From Candidatus Tayloriibacteriota bacterium (GTDB lineage: Bacteria; Patescibacteriota; Minisyncoccia; Phycocordibacterales; UBA6065), in assembly GCA_016215405.1 (NCBI GenBank), contig JACRJQ010000007.1, positions 150,298 through 214,297 on the forward strand: a DNA stretch of 64,000 nt, given 5' to 3'. Each line of letters starts with the position of its first letter. The stretch's first letter is position 1. The position numbers and the translations under genes are program-made. Shown one piece after another: positions 2,885 to 34,186 of this stretch. Below the pieces are notes generated by a model, which searched no databases, had not been told where the DNA came from, and saw only the letters and a program-made list of their open reading frames with translations.

Positions 2885-3018
2885 TCGTTTTCGATTGTTA
2901 CGGAAGGAGTGGTTTCTTCGCGGCGCTAAAGCTTGAGTTTGATGCTTTAAGCCGTTACTCACCCCTACCCTGTTAAATAGCGTTCCTTACGGACGCGAAG
3001 GTGAGATTACTATAGATA

Positions 3019-3048
3019 GTGACAATTATCAAGACTGCGCCTAGTATT
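3019..3048 (+). promoter_or_regulatory. candidate sigma70-type promoter (-35 GTGACA, 17-bp spacer, -10 TAGTAT)
   Basis: GTGACA 3019-3024, TAGTAT 3043-3048, 6 nt before ATG 3055. Implies a leaderless or very short-leader mRNA. Confidence 0.35.
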
Positions 3049-3054
3049 AGGGCC

Positions 3055-4005
3055 ATGAAAGAAAACCTTCCACTCGGCCTCCTCTCAAAGCACCTCCCTG
3101 CACTGGGGCTAGAAAATCCCCTGTATATAGAAAACGAGAACGACCTATTCGAGGATGGAGCGGTACCGAGGCGAAACCTCGGTATTCGGTACCGAGGTTT
3201 CGCCTCGGTACAAAGCGCGGTCGTCTTTTTGCCGAAATCGAAGGCGCTCATAGACATGACGCTCGCCTTGGTCTCGGGGATAGTAGAGGAAGGCGGCACG
3301 GTCGTCCTCGCCGGTTCGAACGACGCGGGGATCAGGAGCGCGAGGGACGCCTATGAGAAGAACATCGGCCCGGTCGACCAGAAGATCGTCGGGAACCACT
3401 CCGCCCTCTATGTGGGCAAGAACCGCCGCCTCTCTGCTTCGAAAAAGCTGGAGGATTTCCTCTCGTATGGAAGTATCATATATGATACTAAATCTCTAGA
3501 AGTCGCGATCGTGCCGGGAGTATTCAGCGCAGGAGAACTGGATGAGGGCACGAAGCTCCTTTTGGACCATATCCCATACGATAGAAAAAAAATCCTCGAC
3601 GTCGGATGCGGCGCGGGAATTATCGGCGCGATATACAAGAAAAAGAATCCCACGGCGGACGTGACGATGTCGGATTCGAGCGAGCTCGCCGTATTCGCTA
3701 CAAGGGCGACGTTTGAGAGGAACGACATCGAAGCGAAGATCCTCCGGTCTGACGTATTCGACGGCATCCAAGAGAAATTCGACGCCATTCTCTGCAACCC
3801 TCCTTTCCACAAAGGAGTATCGACAGACTATTCGTTCATAGAGAAGTTCGCGAAGGGCGCCAAGGCGCGCCTTTCTCCCAACGGAGAGGTCTGGGTCGTC
3901 GCGAACGCGTTCCTCTCCTATGCGGATATCCTCCAAAAGAACATCGGCCCGACAGAGGTCGTGGCCGATGACAAAAGATTCAAAGTCTACAGGTCGAGGG
4001 TCTAG
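3055..4005 (+). CDS. class I SAM-dependent methyltransferase (RsmC/RsmD-like MTS domain, likely rRNA methyltransferase)
   Basis: ILDVGCGAGIIG (motif I) and LCNPPFH (motif IV, N-methyl/N2-G type). Start moved to ATG 3055 because 3019 lies inside the putative promoter. Confidence 0.7.
   Translation: MKENLPLGLLSKHLPALGLENPLYIENENDLFEDGAVPRRNLGIRYRGFASVQSAVVFLPKSKALIDMTLALVSGIVEEGGTVVLAGSNDAGIRSARDAYEKNIGPVDQKIVGNHSALYVGKNRRLSASKKLEDFLSYGSIIYDTKSLEVAIVPGVFSAGELDEGTKLLLDHIPYDRKKILDVGCGAGIIGAIYKKKNPTADVTMSDSSELAVFATRATFERNDIEAKILRSDVFDGIQEKFDAILCNPPFHKGVSTDYSFIEKFAKGAKARLSPNGEVWVVANAFLSYADILQKNIGPTEVVADDKRFKVYRSRV
3163..3211. repeat. perfect 22-bp inverted repeat (GTACCGAGGCGAAACCTCGGTA / TACCGAGGTTTCGCCTCGGTAC, 5-nt spacer) inside the methyltransferase CDS
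   Basis: Directly visible; each arm is itself a hairpin (GUACCGAGG-CGAAA-CCUCGGUA). Confidence 0.85.
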
Positions 4006-4674
4006 CTACCACGGGAGCCTCTCTCCTTTGAACCAAAAGAGTCCAGTGTCCGATAAGGGCTTTACCTTCGCGGCGAATTCGTATATATAGCCCGCCGCTT
4101 CTTCGGGCGAGAGATCTGCTTCTCCGCCGCCCATATCCGTCTTCACCCAACCCGGATGAATCGACGCGACGAATATCCCACGCTGAGAGAGCCTGCCCGC
4201 GAGGATCCTCGTGTACATGTTGAGGGCGGCCTTCGACATCTTGTACGAAGGATAGTTAAAGACGCGCAGGTCTTTCGAGAGCATGCCTGCGGTCGAAGAC
4301 ATGTTGAATATCTGGCCCCCGTCGCTTACCTGAGACGAAAGCCTCTCTGTGAGATCGGCGAGGCCGAAGACGTTCACCTCGAACGTCTCGCGAAGCTTCT
4401 CTGAGATCACCTTGTCGGTGAAATCGTCCTCGCATACGCCGGCGTTGTTCACGAGGAGGTCGATCGTCACGCCTTCGCTGATAAGCGCGTCGCAGAGAGA
4501 TCCGATGCTCTGAGGCGACGAAAGGTCGAGGTCGTATCCCTTGAAGCTCGGAGAATCCGGGATATTGAGGCCGGAGACGGCAGTGCCGAGGACGCGCCAG
4601 CCTTCCTTTATGAATCTCTCGGCGAGCGCCCTGCCTATGCCTCGCGAAGTCCCCGTTATAAGCGCGGTTTTCAT
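4006..4674 (-). CDS. short-chain dehydrogenase/reductase (SDR)
   Basis: TGTSRGIGRA Rossmann motif, NNAG, YxxxK (YKMSKAAL). Confidence 0.85.
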   Translation of the reverse strand: MKTALITGTSRGIGRALAERFIKEGWRVLGTAVSGLNIPDSPSFKGYDLDLSSPQSIGSLCDALISEGVTIDLLVNNAGVCEDDFTDKVISEKLRETFEVNVFGLADLTERLSSQVSDGGQIFNMSSTAGMLSKDLRVFNYPSYKMSKAALNMYTRILAGRLSQRGIFVASIHPGWVKTDMGGGEADLSPEEAAGYIYEFAAKVKPLSDTGLFWFKGERLPW

Positions 4675-4690
4675 CGTCTTGGAGGTTAGC

Positions 4691-5305
4691 TTAGATGCCG
4701 GTTATAAGGCGGAAGAGCCATGGTATGAGAGGGGCGAAGAACTGCCAGAGGAAGATGAGGAATATGAACACTCCGACGAATCCGAACCTCTCTATAGACT
4801 CCCTCACCTTCATCCAGCCCTGCGGCAAGATCGCCGTGAGGATCTTCGACCCGTCGAGGGGCGGCATCGGCACCAGGTTGAAGACCGCGAGCGCGATGTT
4901 TATATAGACGATCTGGATAGCGAGCATCGAGACAGGGCTATCGATGCCTCCCGGCAAAGCGTAGAACCTGAGAAAAAGGCCGAACACGGTGGCGAGGACG
5001 AGATTCGATAAAGGGCCCGCGAACGCGACGATGGCTTCTCCCCACCTTTGATTCCTCAGATTATATGGATTGTAAGGGACCGGCTTCGCCCAGCCGAACA
5101 TGAAGCCTCCGGGAAGGAGCGCGAGGATTACCGGCAGTATGACCGAGCCTACCGGGTCGATATGCTTTATCGGATTGAGCGTGAGGCGGCCCTCGAGCTC
5201 CGCCGTCCTATCCCCCTGGATAAGGGCAGCGTAGCCGTGAGAGATCTCGTGTATCACGACCGAGAATATGAGGATGACGAGGGAGAATATGAACGATGCT
5301 TCCAT
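4691..5305 (-). CDS. site-2 protease family (peptidase M50) membrane metalloprotease
   Basis: HEISHG HExxH in the first TM segment, multi-TM, LDGS motif. Confidence 0.8.
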   Translation of the reverse strand: MEASFIFSLVILIFSVVIHEISHGYAALIQGDRTAELEGRLTLNPIKHIDPVGSVILPVILALLPGGFMFGWAKPVPYNPYNLRNQRWGEAIVAFAGPLSNLVLATVFGLFLRFYALPGGIDSPVSMLAIQIVYINIALAVFNLVPMPPLDGSKILTAILPQGWMKVRESIERFGFVGVFIFLIFLWQFFAPLIPWLFRLITGI

Positions 5306-5397
5306 GGTTGATGGTTGTGGAGCCTAAAACTTGCCAAATCGCCTATGTATGATACCATGCTCCGTACTTCCTAATACGAGAAATCTAATCAACTGTC

Positions 5398-5640
5398 ATG
5401 GCAAAAACCTGCCCAGTAACAAAGAGAACGTCCCTCATGGGAGGAGGATACTCGAACGCGACCCGCGCGACGCAGTTTAACCCTACCGGAAAGGTCCGAA
5501 GGTATGTGAACCTCCAGGCGAAGAAGATCTACATCCCGGAGCTCAAGAAATCGATCAGGCTCACCCTCTCGACCCGCGCGATCAAGACCATAAACAAGAA
5601 CGGCGCCTACGCCACCCTCAAGAAGGCGGGCATCATCTAG
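5398..5640 (+). CDS. rpmB: 50S ribosomal protein L28
   Basis: MAKTCPVTKR... typical L28 N-terminus; 80 aa. Confidence 0.85.
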   Translation: MAKTCPVTKRTSLMGGGYSNATRATQFNPTGKVRRYVNLQAKKIYIPELKKSIRLTLSTRAIKTINKNGAYATLKKAGII

Positions 5641-5643
5641 ATA

Positions 5644-5679
5644 AAAAGCGGCTCGGACCTACGGTCCGAGCCGCTTTTC
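5644..5679 (+). terminator. rho-independent terminator
   Basis: aaaagcggctcggacc-tac-ggtccgagccgctttt, a perfect 13-bp stem plus U-tract. Confidence 0.75.
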
Positions 5680-5686
5680 GTTCCCT

Positions 5687-6244
5687 TTGACTCAGGCGGC
5701 TCTGAGGGTACTATTAGGAGCGATGAGCACGTCGACCTATCCTGTGTTGACCATTTGCTATCTCATCCGAGGCGAGCCGGGGCATGAGGAAGTCCTCATG
5801 GGAGAGAAGGCGCCGACAGAAAGCGCCGTAAAGCGAGGGGTTGCGGGAAGATGGATCGGTTCGGGAGGCCTTCTCGAACCGGACATCGATCCCTCTCCCA
5901 TCGCATGCGGCATCCGCGAGACGAAGAAAGAGCTGGACGTCCTCGCGGAGGAGAGCCACACGTCAGAGATGAGCCGCATCCTAGTGAGCAAGGAGGGCGA
6001 GGAAGATATCGAGCTGCGCCATCTCTTCATGAGGCGCTGGCGAGGCACCCCCCGCCCTGACGGCAGAGAATTCCTGAAGATCCACTGGTATCCGGTATCC
6101 CGGACGCCGGAGAATCTCTGCGACGTAGACCGCTGCGTCCTGCCGGTCCTTATGAGCGGAAGAAGGCTCTGCGGCACGCTCAGGCTCACCCGCTCCGGCG
6201 CGTTCGCCGGATCGAGACTGCAAATGGTAAGTTCGTTCGAGTGA
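5687..6244 (+). CDS. Nudix hydrolase-like protein
   Basis: Loose Nudix box (G...E...GIRETKKELDV). The start may be the internal Met (MSTST...). Confidence 0.45.
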   Translation: MTQAALRVLLGAMSTSTYPVLTICYLIRGEPGHEEVLMGEKAPTESAVKRGVAGRWIGSGGLLEPDIDPSPIACGIRETKKELDVLAEESHTSEMSRILVSKEGEEDIELRHLFMRRWRGTPRPDGREFLKIHWYPVSRTPENLCDVDRCVLPVLMSGRRLCGTLRLTRSGAFAGSRLQMVSSFE

Positions 6245-28185: not shown

Positions 28186-28965
28186 TTACCTCGTCCTCTG
28201 CAGGACGTAGGGGTGCTCCATATCGTGGTGCAGATAATGCGGCCCGCAATTGCATGGCCGTTTGCCGCACCGATAATGCGGCCCCGAATACTTCTCGGAA
28301 AGGACCGTATCGAGATCGACCTCGAGCATTCCCGAGATCACCAAGATCCACGAGAACACGTCGGCGAGCTCGTGCGAGACGCTTTTGCGCATGGCTTCGA
28401 GTTTCATACCGTGCCGGTGGATGTCGAGGAGCTGGGCGCTCGACGTCTCGCCGATCTCCTCATACAGGCGACCGATGACGAATTGCATCCCGTTCTTCCG
28501 GTTGCCTTCGCCATAGACCGCCATCAGATTCGCGGCCCAGTCGTTTGCAGACCAGGCGAGCTGAATGGGGTCGGGAGGGGCGAGGACGATGTCTTTCCTC
28601 TTTTCGATGTGGCAGGCGCAGACGGGCTCTCCGCAATACGCACAGCGGCCCGGCGGGAACTTCTCCCGCATCGCATCGACGACGGGAAGGTCCCTGAATT
28701 CGTCGGCGACGGCGCACGTCCAGCTGAAGAGGCTCGCGAGAGAGCTTTCGAGATTGGGCTTAGAGGACTTCTTGCGCACATGCTTCGCGAAGATCCTAGC
28801 CGCTTCGAGGAGGAAGAAAAGGCGCTGGCCCTTGAGATACATAGCGTTGCGCTGGCCAAAGAGCCCGCGCAGATCGTCAATCTGGCTTTGGAGGTTCATG
28901 GTAGGTTTTGGGTTCTGCGACCACCCTACTCCAACACCACGAGGAAGTAAATCGAAGAGGATCAC
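28186..28965 (-). CDS. MazG-like nucleotide pyrophosphohydrolase domain protein with Cys-rich inserts
   Basis: ELADVFSWILVISGMLEVDLDTVLSEKY resembles the MazG EExxD/E helix; CxxC...CxC and CxxxxCxC clusters. The start may be the internal MNLQSQ. Confidence 0.45.
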   Translation of the reverse strand: MILFDLLPRGVGVGWSQNPKPTMNLQSQIDDLRGLFGQRNAMYLKGQRLFFLLEAARIFAKHVRKKSSKPNLESSLASLFSWTCAVADEFRDLPVVDAMREKFPPGRCAYCGEPVCACHIEKRKDIVLAPPDPIQLAWSANDWAANLMAVYGEGNRKNGMQFVIGRLYEEIGETSSAQLLDIHRHGMKLEAMRKSVSHELADVFSWILVISGMLEVDLDTVLSEKYSGPHYRCGKRPCNCGPHYLHHDMEHPYVLQRTR

Positions 28966-28971
28966 ATAAGA

Positions 28972-28992
28972 AAACCGCCTTTCGGCGGCTTC
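28972..28992 (-). terminator. candidate terminator downstream of the SIR2 gene
   Basis: On the minus strand gccgcc-gaaa-ggcggt followed by TTTCTT; weak. Confidence 0.4.
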
Positions 28993-29086
28993 TCATTTTG
29001 GGTGCCGTCGTGGCGGGAATTAGAAATAGAATGAGGTTTGAAAATCCAGCCATTCCCTCTCTTAAATGAAATAATTGAACCTCGTC

Positions 29087-30064
29087 TCAAGAGAGACTCT
29101 TTTTTATTTCTTTTAAAATTGTAGTTTCATTTTGATCGGGCGGAAATATCTGTCGAAGAGAATAAGGGAAATAACCTTTAACACCATTCCATATTCCTGC
29201 GTATTTACTCACTTCCCATGAACCGAAATGAGAAGGTTTTCCCTCGAGTTTATTTTTGACAATCTCAGGATCTGTCGGATTCACAATGTAAATACTGAGA
29301 CCGTATTCTTGCACACCCTTTAGCAGAATGTCGTTTATATGCGCGTCACCAAATCCATACCCAATCACAAGTAATTTCTTATTCTTTTCAAAGATCTGAC
29401 CCATAAATATTTCCATGTACCATTTCAACAATGGCTCCTGAGAAATGTTTTCGGATTTGTTCTTACCAATCACCATCTGATTACCTCCATTGGAGGAGGC
29501 CCAAGCATAGGACCCGTGTAATTTTATATAACTCGAATTATTTAAGTCTTTTTTTGCAGGCTCAGCCTCCTTGGGGAGGATGGCTTTTTTGGCATTTCCT
29601 TTAATTCCATAATCAAACACCTGTGCAACACCAGGAGAGCGATAGTCGTGCTGTCTCTCCATAAGTAAGTCTTGATTCAGAGTGAAAAACCAACCGCTCT
29701 CTGATCCCCTTTGGGATAAAAAACTCAACAAATCACCAAGCCCATAGATATTTAGAGCAAGAGGATTCTCCAAATTAAATGTCCAGCCTTTTATCGAGTC
29801 ATCAAGGTCTTTATATGCATCCTCCACGGCAACTCGCACCGCTTCTTTTGCCTCGGGTGTGTAGCGTCCTCCTGTAAGGACTATTGAATACACCGACTCA
29901 AAATCAAAGTCCTTCAATAACAAATCGCGCACATCAGGAATTGCCTGTAAGAGGGGGTTATTGAAAATTTTTGACCACATTTCACGCGCAAGAAAACCAC
30001 CAAAATTATGTGTGAAGCCGGCACCTGTTAGCAAAAGAACATTTCTCTGCATAGATTTAGTCAT
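29087..30064 (-). CDS. SIR2-like (SIR2_2 / DUF4020-type, ThsA-like NADase) domain protein
   Basis: LLLTGAGFT (cf. ThsA FAGAGLS), KLHGS (cf. KMHGD), VIGYGFGDAHINDIL (cf. VGFSFTDPNLDYIL). Start ATG 30062-30064 overlaps the upstream gene's stop (ATGACTAA). Confidence 0.8.
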   Translation of the reverse strand: MTKSMQRNVLLLTGAGFTHNFGGFLAREMWSKIFNNPLLQAIPDVRDLLLKDFDFESVYSIVLTGGRYTPEAKEAVRVAVEDAYKDLDDSIKGWTFNLENPLALNIYGLGDLLSFLSQRGSESGWFFTLNQDLLMERQHDYRSPGVAQVFDYGIKGNAKKAILPKEAEPAKKDLNNSSYIKLHGSYAWASSNGGNQMVIGKNKSENISQEPLLKWYMEIFMGQIFEKNKKLLVIGYGFGDAHINDILLKGVQEYGLSIYIVNPTDPEIVKNKLEGKPSHFGSWEVSKYAGIWNGVKGYFPYSLRQIFPPDQNETTILKEIKKSLS

Positions 30065-31505
30065 CGTAATCGCGCCAATTCTGCTTATCGTATTTTCCCC
30101 TTTCAACATATTCTACAAGCGTGTCGTAGAAAAAACGCGCATGGGCAGAACGATCACCTTCATTCAAATACCAGCCATTCTGCGTTCTTTTAATCTTATA
30201 GGTTAACCAATCAGAATTCTCGTTAGTCCCTTTCGGAATTAATCTCTTCAACATCGAATTTGAATATTCCGAGAAAAGCCACTGCCCCTTGTCATCAGAT
30301 GAGGAGGCGTTTGCCCTCACTGATCTAAGCACCTTTAGAAAAGTCTCTTTATTTCCATAAAGAGCGATTAATAACTTAATAGCAATATCTATACATTGGT
30401 TCCTACCATCCATGAAACTGTCCCTAATAAGGGCGCCCTTTTGTACCTCAACAAACTTATGTTGTATTGGTTTATACAGCTGGCGAAGGCTCACGTGACC
30501 CAAATCAAATGCCTTAAGTAACACCTCCTCCAAAAGATGTTTGGTTATTCCACTTCTACCCAGCGCATCTTTGAGATTTGGCTCATCATATTTTATTTTC
30601 TGGATGAGATCAGGTATTTTTTCAATAACTGCCTTTTTGTTATCGAACTCAAAGGGTTTAACGGTGAAGAATTTGTCGAAATAACCACCAAACTCGGTTG
30701 ACTCACCGTATCTGTGATGAAATATGCTCTCTACGTTCTTAATGTCAGCCACAATTATTATGTGATCGAAACCAAATTTGTTGTCTTCCTCACCTTCCAT
30801 CTGGGCTGATAACACGTTCAGTATGCGGAATATATGCTCGGGATCGATTCTGTCGAAGTCGTCCAATATCAAAACGCTTCTCTTTCCCGCTTTGTTGTTT
30901 TTTATCTTCTCGATCAGCAAGTGACTAAGATGATCGGTTGCAATCGAATCGTCAGACAATTCGATCTCCTTTATGAATTTATCAATAACGCCCTTATCAC
31001 CAGCTTGAAATTCTCTTTTAAACTCTTGGAATTTCCTGTCGAACACGAGCAAGTCTTTTATAGGCCGACCTAGTTTGCTCAATGCCTGTACTAATGGGTC
31101 TGGAGACAGGGAGAGCGCCGCTTCAGTGGTGCCAACGATTGATTGAAGCGTTGAGTTTATTGACCCTCTTTCTTTGCAAAAAGAGAGAAATAGCCTAGTA
31201 GAATCTTTTATGCCCTTGGAAACATTACCCTGAAAACACTCAGGGTCCTTTTTAAGCAGTTCTACTAAAATATCGTATTTTAGTAGATTAATTATATTTT
31301 CATTTGATGAAATCTGATATCTGACTGGATACAGATGATAGACATCATATTTTTCTTTAAAACCATCAAAGAAAGTCTGTAGGAAAAAAGTCTTTCCACA
31401 CCCAAATTTGCCAGAGAAAAAAATACGCCTGTTTTTCTCTTCAGATAAAAAAGCTTCAAATTTACTCTTTGGTCCGTCTATTGAAATAAGGTTTTCTTGT
31501 TCCAT
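30057..31505 (-). CDS. KAP-family P-loop NTPase
   Basis: Walker A FSGKFGCGKT and KAP-type Walker B VLILDDFDRIDPEHIFRILNVL. Start placed at MEQENLIS (ATG 31503-31505) because the upstream ORF extension overlaps a tRNA-like structure. Confidence 0.78.
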   Translation of the reverse strand: MEQENLISIDGPKSKFEAFLSEEKNRRIFFSGKFGCGKTFFLQTFFDGFKEKYDVYHLYPVRYQISSNENIINLLKYDILVELLKKDPECFQGNVSKGIKDSTRLFLSFCKERGSINSTLQSIVGTTEAALSLSPDPLVQALSKLGRPIKDLLVFDRKFQEFKREFQAGDKGVIDKFIKEIELSDDSIATDHLSHLLIEKIKNNKAGKRSVLILDDFDRIDPEHIFRILNVLSAQMEGEEDNKFGFDHIIIVADIKNVESIFHHRYGESTEFGGYFDKFFTVKPFEFDNKKAVIEKIPDLIQKIKYDEPNLKDALGRSGITKHLLEEVLLKAFDLGHVSLRQLYKPIQHKFVEVQKGALIRDSFMDGRNQCIDIAIKLLIALYGNKETFLKVLRSVRANASSSDDKGQWLFSEYSNSMLKRLIPKGTNENSDWLTYKIKRTQNGWYLNEGDRSAHARFFYDTLVEYVERGKYDKQNWRDYDD

Positions 31506-31511
31506 ATTTGC

Positions 31512-31609
31512 TGCGAGAATGGGGATCGAACCCATATTTTTTCCTTTCAAGATATTCAACAATGTGAGTACCTTGAAAGGGAAATGTGCTACCGTTACAC
31601 CATCTCGCA
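31512..31609 (-). tRNA. tRNA-like element: tRNA-Glu(UUC)-like cloverleaf with a 28-nt insertion after the anticodon loop (possible intron-containing or degenerate tRNA)
   Basis: Manual fold: acceptor TGCGAGA/TCTCGCA, D-arm GTGT-AACGGTA-GCAC, anticodon arm TTTCC-CTTTCAA-[28 nt]-GGAAA, T-arm ATGGG-TTCGATC-CCCAT. No CCA. Confidence 0.4.
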
Positions 31610-31625
31610 ATATCACTTTGATATC

Positions 31626-32156
31626 TCAGGTCATCAAAGCGATGAGCTTCTCAAGGTCCACAATTTTTTTCTTTTGCGAATCGACGAGTGTTTTCGGAAA
31701 TACTTTCTCATATTCAGTAGGGTCGTTGCGGCGTTTATGGTCGATGTATTTTGATTCGAATTCCGACTTGCACCATGCTGATGTTTTGTCTGAATAAGAC
31801 TTCCCGTCATTAAGTATTGAGAGAAGCACTGCCTCCAAGCAGGGTGTAATCTCAATAAGCTCAATGCCTCTTTCTTTTGCTTGCTTTCGAGCTCGCCTAA
31901 TTTCCTCTTCGCCCTTATCGTTATCAAGGACAACGACCTTGCGATCAAAGGCCCCTGGAATCTTGTCCGCATCCATAACCACATTCTCTGGTGCGCCCCC
32001 TTTGCCTTTTCGGATAGTAACGGCAACCCCAGTATCCCTCGAATAAATAGATTTGAGATATTTAAGGAATACCTCTTCGCACATCCCCTCCCCAAAAACC
32101 AAAAGCATCCTACTTGCGACACGTCGTTTATGCTTTTGTGGATTTGAGCGAGACAT
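31626..32156 (-). CDS. RloB-like / DUF4276-like Toprim-type small protein (partner of an AAA_21 ATPase)
   Basis: N-terminal MLLVFGEGMCEEVF (E-G-x-x-E) and VVVLDNDKGEEE (DxD) in Toprim-like spacing; 176 aa; 9 nt downstream of the ATPase gene. Confidence 0.5.
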   Translation of the reverse strand: MSRSNPQKHKRRVASRMLLVFGEGMCEEVFLKYLKSIYSRDTGVAVTIRKGKGGAPENVVMDADKIPGAFDRKVVVLDNDKGEEEIRRARKQAKERGIELIEITPCLEAVLLSILNDGKSYSDKTSAWCKSEFESKYIDHKRRNDPTEYEKVFPKTLVDSQKKKIVDLEKLIALMT

Positions 32157-32164
32157 GAACGACT

Positions 32165-33370
32165 TTAGATCTTAGGCACGGCGCCATAAGCACCTGCAAG
32201 GTACTTGGTGTAGTAATTGTCATCTGCTCGAACGCCCTCCATCTCGTCGAGCCGCCAAGATTCGCTCATGCCCTTTGAGTTTTTCTCAATCAGAATGATC
32301 TGATATTTATCAAGCTTACTCAATATCTGATGACTATGTGTACTGAATAGAAGCTGAGCGTTCTTCGGATTTAGCTCTGGTTCGATGAACATATCGAAGA
32401 GCGCCAACATCATGTCAGGATGTAAGCTGACGTCGAATTCATCCAATACCGCAATACCTCCTTTTTCGAGGGCAACAAGAATGTGTTTAAGAAGCACGAA
32501 GAGCTGTTTGGTGCCCGAGGACTCTTGATCAAAAGGTAGATTAACCTTCTCGTCTCCAAATGAATGTGAGACGGAAACATTCATGAGAAAATCGTTTGGA
32601 TTTTTTGATTTTTCTATTTCGAAGGCATTAAGGCCCAGATCAAATCGAGACAGCATTTTTTCGGCCGCTTTCTTGAGTTTGTCGTTTTCACTATAAAACT
32701 TGAAAGCCATAGCCTGTTGTATTGTGTTGTGAATACCGTGACCGCCAACCCAACCCACAGGTCCGACGTTTGTCTCGAGTTTCTGCCAATAATTTGCTAT
32801 ATCCTGGCTTTCTTTGTGATTGAGTCGTATCGCGACCGCAACTACACTCGCATTTGAGCGGAGTAGTGTCTCGGATCCCTTTGGGAGGTCAAAGTTTGCA
32901 TCATCAAGTTCATAGGAGTTAATACCTTCGTTCCAAGATCGAGAAAACATCTTTTTATTCGATTTCTTCTCGTTAGCCATACTTACCAGGCGAAGGTCCT
33001 CAGACGTAATCTTATTTTTGTTCAGTGTGAAGCTGTAAGTATAAACACCCCTTTCTATCTCAAACACTACTGATATCTCTGTGGGCAAGCTCTTGTGTTC
33101 ATTCAAGGCAAAGCAATTTATCGGCAAGGCCTGCTGAGGATTCATTTCAAATGAATCAACGATAAGCCACTTTAAAAATGGAATTACTTTTAGAAGATTT
33201 GTTTTACCCGAGGCATTGGGTCCTATGATCGTTTCGACTTTTGAGAGCCGTGTCCCAAGAGGGGTAGTAAAGTAAGAGTTATTCTTAGGCGCATTATCGT
33301 TCACAACAAAACTCAGAGTGTTTTCCTCACCCAAAGAATAGAAATTCTTGCAAGAAATTGAATGTATCAT
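32165..33370 (-). CDS. AAA_21-type ABC ATPase (RloA/AbiLi/OLD-ATPase-like)
   Basis: Walker A GPNASGKTNLL, Walker B/D-loop IAVLDEFDVSLHP, H-loop FSTHS. Confidence 0.8.
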   Translation of the reverse strand: MIHSISCKNFYSLGEENTLSFVVNDNAPKNNSYFTTPLGTRLSKVETIIGPNASGKTNLLKVIPFLKWLIVDSFEMNPQQALPINCFALNEHKSLPTEISVVFEIERGVYTYSFTLNKNKITSEDLRLVSMANEKKSNKKMFSRSWNEGINSYELDDANFDLPKGSETLLRSNASVVAVAIRLNHKESQDIANYWQKLETNVGPVGWVGGHGIHNTIQQAMAFKFYSENDKLKKAAEKMLSRFDLGLNAFEIEKSKNPNDFLMNVSVSHSFGDEKVNLPFDQESSGTKQLFVLLKHILVALEKGGIAVLDEFDVSLHPDMMLALFDMFIEPELNPKNAQLLFSTHSHQILSKLDKYQIILIEKNSKGMSESWRLDEMEGVRADDNYYTKYLAGAYGAVPKI

Positions 33371-33596
33371 GTTTTTATTGTGGCCTTTGCTTAATCGGTA
33401 CTATACCTCTATATACGAATATTGCAAGCTTTTATACATAAAATTGTATAAAACGACACAAAAATAGTTAATTGAATACGGCTTAAGAAAGTAGGGCTTT
33501 ATTAAGCCACCAGATAAGGGTCATTTGAGAGGGTGCGCCAGAATTATAAAAGCCAAGAGAGTACTCGTGAAAACTCTTGGAAGGGTGTAATTGATT

Positions 33597-33945
33597 TGTA
33601 GAAACTAATCAACCGCTCGCGCAAGAATTATCTCCCTCGGAAGATCGACACGCCAAGTTCGTTGAGCTTACCCAGAAGACGTTCGAGTTCGCCGCCTATG
33701 CTCACAAGGCTTTTATCGCTCCAAACGCCGATTCAATGCTTAAAAGGGAGATATTCCTCGCACTCGGTAAGAACCATTCGATAACGGGCCAAATACTTCG
33801 AATAGAGCCGTATGAATGGCTCGAACCTATAAAGTCCTGCTACCCAGCCTTGAAAGCTGAATATGACGCGTTGGAACTCAATATACCCGACAGTTTGGCG
33901 CGAGCAGAGGCATTAGCTCAAATTCGTACCACTTGGGGTGGCTAG
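33597..33945 (+). pseudogene. open frame without ATG start until 33736 (possible 3' remnant of a gene disrupted at the island boundary, or small gene with non-canonical start)
   Basis: Reading frame open from the TGA at ~33594 to the stop at 33945 (≈115 codons); only the Met-initiated part (33736..33945) appears in the ORF track. Confidence 0.25.
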
Positions 33946-34084
33946 AGAGATCACGGATACGTTTATCAATTCTTACAGAATCTGTACACCTTTCCCAATT
34001 CTTCGGATGGAAATCCTCAGAATTATGGGAGAAGGTTTTCGATTCTCTCACGCGAGCCGCCCCGGGCTCGCTTAGCCATCCACT

Positions 34085-34108: not shown

Positions 34109-34114
34109 TTCGTG

Positions 34115-34186
34115 GGTGGCTAGAGAGAATCGAACTCTCGATATCGGTTCCACAAACCGAAGTTTTACCACTAAACTATAGCCACC
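34115..34186 (-). tRNA. tRNA-His (anticodon GUG) with the extra 5' G-1
   Basis: GGTGGCTA...anticodon loop UUGUGGA...GAGTTCGATTCTCTCTAGCCACC. Confidence 0.85.

Follow-up and report, generated by a model that had tools for sequence, protein, structure and literature searches.

The 64,000-nt stretch analysed here, hereafter the window (contig JACRJQ010000007.1 of the Candidatus Tayloriibacteriota bacterium assembly GCA_016215405.1, positions 150,298 to 214,297), carries on its minus strand, at 31511-31609, a tRNA-Glu(UUC)-type gene which is interrupted in the anticodon loop by a 28-nt insertion and lies in a defence island, between an AbiL cassette and the gene for a KAP-type nucleoside triphosphatase (NTPase). 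We favour, with confidence slightly above even, the interpretation of this element as a horizontally carried tRNA-Glu(UUC) relic at a cassette seam, its decoding disabled by the hairpin-forming insertion, rather than as a novel RNA with a regulatory or immune role. Whatever its history, this interrupted tRNA gene of a bacterial island, with its anticodon masked by an unusually clean helix, is a well-defined oddity.

The element spans 99 nt, including the discriminator G73, and has no encoded CCA; in the numbering used below, its position p corresponds to window coordinate 31610-p. The 5' exon (31573-31609, minus strand) comprises the 5' strand of the acceptor stem, the D-arm, the 5' strand of the anticodon stem and the loop CUUUCAA, with the anticodon UUC at 31575-31577. 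It is followed by the insertion GGUACUCACAUUGUUGAAUAUCUUGAAA (31545-31572, minus strand), a unique sequence with a GC content of 32%, and by the 3' exon (31511-31544, minus strand), which provides the 3' strand of the anticodon stem, GGAAA, a 4-nt variable loop, AAAU, the T-arm, the 3' strand of the acceptor stem and the discriminator G. All 4 arms are perfectly paired, namely, the 7-bp acceptor stem UGCGAGA/UCUCGCA, which is followed by U8 and G9, the D-arm GUGU-AACGGUA-GCAC, the anticodon stem UUUCC/GGAAA with its loop CUUUCAA, and the T-arm AUGGG-UUCGAUC-CCCAU. All positions from 1 to 71 of the Rfam tRNA model (RF00005) align with the element, which scores 55.6 bits (gathering score, 29; E = 2.9e-9 when the whole window is searched) and has approximately 30 additional nt in the anticodon loop; tRNA was the sole Rfam match at this locus even at E values up to 10. 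With introns allowed, ARAGORN reports tRNA-Glu(ttc) i(37,28), that is, a 28-nt insert at position 37, although repeated A residues leave the exact insertion point uncertain by 1-2 nt; the default bacterial run of the same program does not report the element. A first-pass annotation, based on the letters of the window, had proposed a tRNA-Glu(UUC)-type cloverleaf with a 28-nt insert. The covariance-model match above cutoff and the intron-tolerant Glu call bear out this proposal, and its arm sequences and coordinates hold on reading the minus strand.

The assignment to glutamate was examined at the level of individual nucleotides. The conserved tRNA nucleotides U8, A14, G18G19, A21, U33, G53, U54U55C56, A58 and C61 are all present, and the UUC anticodon is flanked by U33 and A37, as expected for tRNA-Glu(UUC). 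In Escherichia coli, the identity set recognised by bacterial glutamyl-tRNA synthetase consists of U11:A24, U13:G22..A46, a missing position 47, G1:C72 and U2:A71. The element has U11:A24, U13:G22, A46 and the 4-nt variable loop, and its acceptor end is U1:A72/G2:C71, which we take to be tRNA-Gln-like, unlike the E. coli-type tRNA-Glu identity set. The glutamate assignment is nevertheless supported by the spliced 71-mer of the exons, the best matches of which are annotated phage tRNA-Glu genes (77.6% over 58 nt). Alternative anticodon registers, with UGA at the 3' side of the insert or UUG in the apical loop, were rejected by inspection, as they leave U33 and R37 unsatisfied.

In the predicted fold, the insertion buries the anticodon. 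Two arms of 20 nt each (31539-31558 and 31565-31584), 85% complementary and separated by 6 nt, extend the anticodon arm into a hairpin with a 6-nt loop (31539-31584, minus strand), forming a continuous helix of approximately 20 bp. Towards its 3' end, the insert complements the anticodon region exactly; the complementarity as such had been recognised in the first-pass annotation, and it reaches further than was stated there. The minimum free energy (MFE) structure of the element, at -35.0 kcal/mol (z = -5.2; none of 200 shuffled sequences being equally good), retains the acceptor, D and T arms and has the continuous long hairpin in place of the anticodon stem-loop. In the predicted ensemble, U33, U34 and C35 (element numbering), which form the anticodon, have pairing probabilities of 0.997-1.0, and the free 7-nt anticodon loop of a functional decoder is thus absent from this fold. 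Upon deletion of the 28 nt, the exons fold as a perfect cloverleaf of -20.0 kcal/mol. When the insert alone was shuffled, only 2 of 2,000 sequences gave an equally stable arm, and the complementarity between insert and anticodon is therefore non-random; it reflects either the mode of origin, which may have been a template-switch inverted duplication of the anticodon region, or selection. Locking the anticodon in a helix is the sole evident property of the insert.

The insertion does not belong to either of the intron classes with which it was compared. Archaeal and eukaryal tRNA introns are bulge-helix-bulge (BHB) substrates of the EndA/TSEN splicing endonuclease, and we know of no tRNA splicing endonuclease in bacteria. 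Like these introns, the insert is short (28 nt), occupies the canonical 37/38 site, pairs with the anticodon and leaves a perfect cloverleaf on removal, but its helix is continuous, without the two 3-nt bulges around a 4-bp helix. No 3-nt bulges are found in either the MFE or the centroid structure, and the canonical central helix cannot form, since CUUU at positions 32-35 cannot pair with CUUG at intron positions -6 to -3. Therefore, an archaeal-type intron, including the relaxed hBH form, is ruled out. Of the earlier suggestion of an intron-containing or degenerate tRNA carried by the island, the island-borne nature agrees with the GC composition, whereas an archaeal-type intron is contradicted by the lack of a BHB motif. 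Neither a splicing endonuclease (EndA) nor a ligase was identified among the island proteins. Group I introns are known to interrupt anticodon loops of bacterial tRNA genes, including that of cyanobacterial tRNA-Leu(UAA), and in this respect resemble the insertion; the latter, however, measures 28 nt rather than >200 nt, has neither a catalytic core nor a P1-like splice-site U.G pair, and gives no match to RF00028 even at E values up to 10, so that this class is also ruled out. As a positive control, the group I intron in a tRNA-Thr gene of the candidate phyla radiation (CPR; locus L090) was readily detected (RF00028, 72 bits). The idea of a mobile insert was rejected as well, because no further copy of the insert sequence is present in the window or in viral contigs; nor is the insert a simple duplication of neighbouring sequence. 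The L090 gene is itself of interest: this patescibacterial tRNA-Thr(CGU) (5247-5885, minus strand), with the group I intron at 5300-5610 in the anticodon loop, is located approximately 500 nt downstream of an AbiLi-AbiLii cassette.

Searches for relatives returned uninterrupted phage tRNAs and no second interrupted gene. The D-arm 16-mer GGTGTAACGGTAGCAC occurs in at least 120 stretches in viral contigs, with tRNA-Gln(UUG) accounting for 70 of 110 calls among the matches listed. A structured pattern combining this D-arm with a YTTTCA loop, a 12-42-nt gap and the T-loop recovers the element itself in the window; elsewhere, in viral and metagenome contigs (viral_contigs, metagenome_contigs), it yields only 5 uninterrupted tRNA-Glu(UUC) genes, all from phage-type tRNA arrays. 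Exact searches with the 5' half, the 3' half and the insert gave 0 viral matches, BLAST of the interrupted sequence against phages and plasmids returned nothing useful, and the phage-array tRNA most similar to the element agrees with it at only 54 of 71 positions. The element is a singleton in the collections and patterns searched. In the literature, our searches likewise revealed neither CPR tRNAs with short insertions in the anticodon loop nor defence islands with tRNA-like components. Intron-tolerant ARAGORN runs did reveal phage-array tRNAs with inserts of 45-83 nt in or near the anticodon loop, in L128 (1572-1692, minus strand), L187 (3162-3280, minus strand), L217 (2356-2492, plus strand), L218 (6036-6197, plus strand) and L214 (12397-12551, plus strand), the predicted folds of which are heterogeneous and unlike that of the element. 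Lak megaphage tRNAs carry short introns described as "enigmatic" (Devoto et al. 2019, PMC6784885). Together with the inserts in L128, L187 and L217, the Lak introns resemble our case as short tRNA insertions which defy classification and are found only by intron-tolerant programs, but they are unrelated in sequence, heterogeneous in architecture and phage-borne, whereas the element resides in a chromosomal defence island, and none shows its continuous extension of the anticodon stem.

The island itself (approximately 29000-33950, with borders estimated from composition) has a GC content of 41% in a genome of 56-58% GC and is clearly foreign. The exons of the element have 46% GC, compared with 55-62% for the host tRNAs in the window, with the exception of tRNA-His (46%). 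All features are encoded on the minus strand in the order AbiLi, AbiLii, element, KAP-type NTPase and SIR2. AbiLi (32165-33370) is an ABC/AAA_21 ATPase (PADLOC AbiLi, 245 bits; Pfam AAA_21), and AbiLii (31626-32156) is a RloB-like protein (Pfam RloB, PADLOC AbiLii) with its stop codon 16 nt upstream of the element. Downstream of the element, HZA81_03350 (30057-31505) encodes a 482-aa KAP-family/ORC-Cdc6-like defence NTPase (Pfam KAP_NTPase, 33.7 bits against a cutoff of 20) starting at ATG 31505, and a SIR2_2-domain protein (29087-30109; alternative starts 30064 and 30052) overlaps or abuts the NTPase stop. The first-pass annotation had set the distance between the tRNA-like structure and the NTPase start at 6 nt, which is right when counting from position 72; after the discriminator (31511), only 5 nt, CAAAT, precede the ATG.

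Neither a sigma-70-like promoter between AbiLii and the element, as judged by a consensus of E. coli type, which CPR bacteria may not follow, nor a terminator between the element and the NTPase gene was found in the interval 31500-32160 on the minus strand. Promoter-like sites are present upstream of AbiLi, and a terminator-like hairpin after SIR2 (28975-28988, minus strand) probably marks the operon end. Given this distribution of signals, co-transcription of all 5 features is the simplest interpretation. The host tRNAs in the window likewise lack an encoded CCA, and for such genes RNase Z-type 3' processing is the expected route. The Logan assembly of run SRR12113407 is 100% identical to the region over 9147 nt, which argues against an assembler artefact. 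No direct repeat of the 3' part of the element and no second copy of any of its 12-mers exist within the window, and no integrase domain was detected by Pfam or PADLOC in the 4 island genes and 2 scanned open reading frames (ORFs) at the lower island border; the element was accordingly rejected as an attachment (att) site. Just past that border lies a GC-rich ORF (28186-28965, minus strand; approximately 245-259 aa) with several Cys pairs and no Pfam or PADLOC match.

The reading frame of the NTPase gene remains open upstream of ATG 31505, from the AbiLii stop codon through the element, and the Logan gene caller starts the NTPase at ATG 31535, inside the T-stem, resulting in a 492-aa product. 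However, the alignments of 406 NTPase homologues are confined to the 482-aa part and cover 90-93% of the 519-aa query, and the nearest homologues start with M-x(2-4)-EEN-(L)IPID at the position of ATG 31505. As homologues lack the extension and begin at this position, the ORF extension across the element is non-coding, in agreement with the earlier annotation. Long-annotated homologues (P0004, P0017, P0027 and P0065) simply have miscalled starts. The lack of a Shine-Dalgarno (SD) sequence at 31505 is normal for this genome, in which SD-like motifs occur at background level (5 of 31 long ORFs) and are not found before AbiLi, AbiLii, SIR2 or rplS; for the same reason, the AAAGGA before ATG 31535, which is the 3' strand of the anticodon stem, carries little weight. 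The AbiLii ORF, the 120-nt spacer with the element and the NTPase ORF share one frame and are separated by a single TGA stop (31626-31628). Since none of the 4 island genes contains an internal TGA, they are unlikely to come from a lineage that recodes TGA (code 25), and the shared frame is probably a coincidence.

Comparison with homologous loci shows that the element accompanies neither of its neighbours. We examined 80 genome loci with NTPase homologues, as well as 4 contigs chosen for their long annotated N-termini, 84 in total, and 13 AbiL loci representing 4 AbiLii lineages at 60-64% identity. A tRNA-like element was found upstream of the NTPase gene in 0 of the 80 genome loci and 0 of the 4 additional contigs (ARAGORN with and without introns allowed, Rfam and inspection of the upstream 160 nt); none of the 80 loci showed similarity to the element, and none of the 13 closest gave an Rfam tRNA match. 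Next to AbiLii it was absent from all 13 loci. Thus, both a conserved leader of the NTPase gene (0/84) and a component of the AbiL system (0/13) were rejected. Furthermore, in L002, L006, L009 and L020 only 1-6 nt separate the NTPase gene from a preceding hsdM-like methylase gene, and in L016 the NTPase gene overlaps the one upstream, indicating that tight spacing is a habit of this gene behind any neighbour rather than a property of the tRNA junction. The tRNA-like 5' leader of the KAP NTPase envisaged in the first-pass annotation is therefore not sustained, given its absence from 84 other loci and the habitual spacing. Because the element is missing from NTPase and AbiL loci alike and AbiL, the NTPase and this SIR2 are never found together elsewhere in the loci compared, it sits at a seam between independently mobile cassettes. 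No counterpart of this SIR2_2 gene was found by tblastn beside the NTPase homologues in the 84 loci, which makes the NTPase-SIR2 pairing specific to this locus.

Some features of the NTPase family deserve mention in their own right. The methylase-like genes preceding it in L002, L006, L009 and L020 (upstream of position ~4000 / 3040) are of the type I restriction-modification kind, with an NPPF/NPPY motif. Considering the 1-6-nt spacing, the family behaves as a "restriction-linked" ORF similar to RloA/B and PrrC, but its fold is KAP/ORC-like rather than ABC-like. The AlphaFold2 model of the NTPase (mean predicted local distance difference test score, pLDDT, 79) finds weak best matches in the Protein Data Bank (PDB) in the RdrA, Cdc6 and BrxC ATPases (template modelling score, TM, about 0.33) and no RNase- or nuclease-like match; the sequence has no relative in the PDB and no informative NCBIfam match.

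Because the element belongs to neither the AbiLi-AbiLii nor the NTPase(-SIR2) cassette, we consider it most likely a relic. An island-borne or phage-type tRNA-Glu gene would have been acquired horizontally, and its anticodon loop would have gained the 28-nt hairpin-forming insertion, possibly by the inverted duplication mentioned above. With the insert paired to the anticodon, the RNA would, as transcribed, be unable to decode. The element is probably co-transcribed with the 4 island genes, and RNase P would cut at its 5' end and RNase Z after G73. Excision would, as a side effect, separate an AbiL mRNA from an NTPase-SIR2 mRNA that has a 5-nt leader; the first-pass annotation had likewise suggested an essentially leaderless KAP mRNA as the product of RNase P/Z processing, which is plausible. 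As both enzymes recognise the acceptor/T domain and the host tRNAs have no encoded CCA either, excision may be expected; this recognition and co-transcription are each probable, given the intact acceptor, D and T domains and the lack of a promoter or terminator between the element and its neighbours. Nothing indicates selection for the arrangement, and we found no support for splicing, decoy, target or leader roles of the element.

Several points weigh against the relic interpretation. All stems and conserved tertiary nucleotides of the tRNA body are intact, unlike in an old pseudogene, which fits either a recent insertion or continued selection, and the non-random pairing between insert and anticodon may stem from selection for pairing, as in genuine introns. 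Our examination covered 64 kb of the 214-kb contig, and the element may be the only tRNA-Glu(UUC) gene of the genome. The promoter scan relied on an E. coli-type consensus, which may not apply to CPR bacteria, and the singleton status refers to the collections and patterns searched, which a diverged relative with a different D-arm would escape.

Among the other explanations, an adaptive role as a cis-acting tRNA-like punctuation mark or insulator, in which RNase P/Z cleavage uncouples the mRNAs or the fold throttles translation of a toxic NTPase-SIR2 pair until the transcript is processed, appears unlikely. The 5 features follow one another closely on a single strand, promoter and terminator signals are lacking around the element, the domains needed by RNase P/Z are intact and the structure ends 5 nt before a start codon, all of which would suit such a role; nevertheless, the element is not conserved in the 84 NTPase or 13 AbiL loci, close packing is normal for the NTPase gene behind any upstream gene, and a plain tRNA would serve equally well, so that the insertion stays unexplained. 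Rather improbable is a functional intron-containing tRNA-Glu from which the insert is removed by an undescribed bacterial pathway, for instance, RNase III-type cutting followed by RtcB-type ligation. The flawless exons, the perfect cloverleaf formed once the 28 nt are removed and an insert whose canonical 37/38 location and pairing with the anticodon recall genuine introns are consistent with this possibility, as are the unexplained short "introns" reported in phage tRNAs (PMC6784885) and the richness of CPR rRNA genes in insertions (PMC10714607). Yet, the BHB motif is missing, with CUUU 32-35 unable to pair with CUUG -6 to -3; there is no ribozyme core (28 nt, no Intron_gpI match), whereas the L090 group I intron is readily detected; and neither a second example was found nor is any splicing machinery known. 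More doubtful still is a broader proposal, namely, that this hairpin-type, non-BHB, non-ribozyme, anticodon-masking insert is either matured by an undescribed cut-and-ligate pathway or creates a masked "pro-tRNA" or mimic acting with the PARIS-like AbiL or with NTPase-SIR2. If this were true, the RNA could, for example, withstand or titrate a nuclease directed at anticodons, or replenish tRNA-Glu once an attack has occurred.

The AriB effector of PARIS cleaves tRNA. By analogy, the TOPRIM domain of AbiLii, encoded 16 nt before the element, is a candidate effector, AbiL having been grouped with PARIS as an ABC-ATPase + TOPRIM system (PMC13064643), and the element might be a defence-related tRNA mimic (a decoy, sensor or antidote) which resists or titrates a tRNA-cleaving effector or baits phage enzymes that target or repair tRNAs. 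The closest analogues of its combination of D-arm and UUC are, moreover, phage-array tRNAs. However, we judge this to be very unlikely, given that the element is absent from 13/13 homologous AbiL loci and 84/84 NTPase loci and, as a singleton, offers no covariation; the NTPase model, with its resemblance to the RdrA/Cdc6/BrxC ATPases and no RNase-like match, would give no help to the decoy idea either. Translation of the region, with GTG 31616 or the ATG 31535 preceded by AAAGGA as the start of an N-terminally extended NTPase and an incidental resemblance to tRNA, is highly improbable: the frame is open from the AbiLii stop into the NTPase and the Logan caller chose ATG 31535, but a 55.6-bit tRNA match is not incidental, homologues without the extension begin at the position of ATG 31505 and the AAAGGA motif is of little weight. 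Finally, we give hardly any credence to the insertion being an assembly or sequencing artefact, as might be suspected for a singleton from a metagenome-assembled genome (MAG), for two independent assemblies, the NCBI MAG and the Logan contig, though probably derived from the same reads, are identical over 9147 nt, and simple duplication of adjacent sequence does not account for the insert.

In form, the element is closest to the Lak megaphage tRNA introns and to bacterial rRNA intervening sequences (IVSs), and in context to tRNA-mRNA operons and island-associated tRNAs. IVSs are excised from rRNA by RNase III without religation. Similar to them, the element has a hairpin insertion that prolongs a native stem, here into an approximately 20-bp helix of the size class of RNase III substrates, but the element is a tRNA, and cutting without religation would destroy decoding. 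Mixed operons of tRNA and mRNA include thrU-tyrU-glyT-thrT-tufB of E. coli, and tRNAs punctuate mitochondrial polycistrons. The element resembles such tRNAs in its position between coding regions on the same strand with no intervening promoter or terminator signal; it differs in being itself disabled, in the uniqueness of the arrangement to this locus and in that its processing is predicted. As for island tRNAs, the element is a tRNA of foreign composition inside an island which abuts tRNA-His with a duplicated 3' end, and a homologous NTPase gene abuts tRNA-Glu(CUC) in L221. Unlike in att-site tRNAs, the 3' half of the element is unrepeated in the window, and no integrase is encoded by the scanned genes.

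The element adds one clean, well-defined example to the few short, unexplained non-ribozyme insertions known from bacterial and phage tRNA genes. Such genes escape tRNA finders run with default bacterial settings, and gene callers then extend the downstream ORF through them, as illustrated by the Logan start of the NTPase. If the relic interpretation is correct, CPR defence islands can carry tRNA-derived debris at cassette seams. Were the insert instead shown to be removed or used, this would imply that bacteria splice or mask tRNAs, an important result to which the present evidence does not point.

Two further tRNA genes were noted in the course of this analysis. The tRNA-His gene adjoining the island (34114-34185, minus strand), with 46% GC against 55-62% in the other 4 tRNAs of the window, may be partly or wholly foreign, as a result of its replacement during an integration event at the 3' end. 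That 3' end recurs as a 15-nt direct repeat 178 nt away, at 33936-33950, and as an inverted copy just past the tRNA terminator (34038-34080, plus strand), which a 23-nt GC hairpin splits precisely at the boundary of T-stem and acceptor strand: TTCGATTCTCTC[ACGCGAGCCGCCCCGGGCTCGCT]TAGCCATCC. In the patescibacterial locus L221, a single-gene NTPase homologue (3001-4506, plus strand), around which no flanking direct repeat was found, is situated between a RibD_C gene and an uninterrupted tRNA-Glu(CUC) (4787-4858, minus strand), the 3' end of which faces the NTPase gene, providing a second, differently oriented association between this NTPase family and tRNA-Glu. The same inverted, hairpin-split layout follows that tRNA-Glu(CUC) gene (4678-4727, plus strand), and these are the only 2 cases among 864 tRNA calls across all loci examined. 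The copy in the window folds stably on the plus strand (z = -4.2), a fold that the L221 copy does not share, and the inverted, hairpin-split copy of a tRNA 3' end could be the relic of a recombination site.

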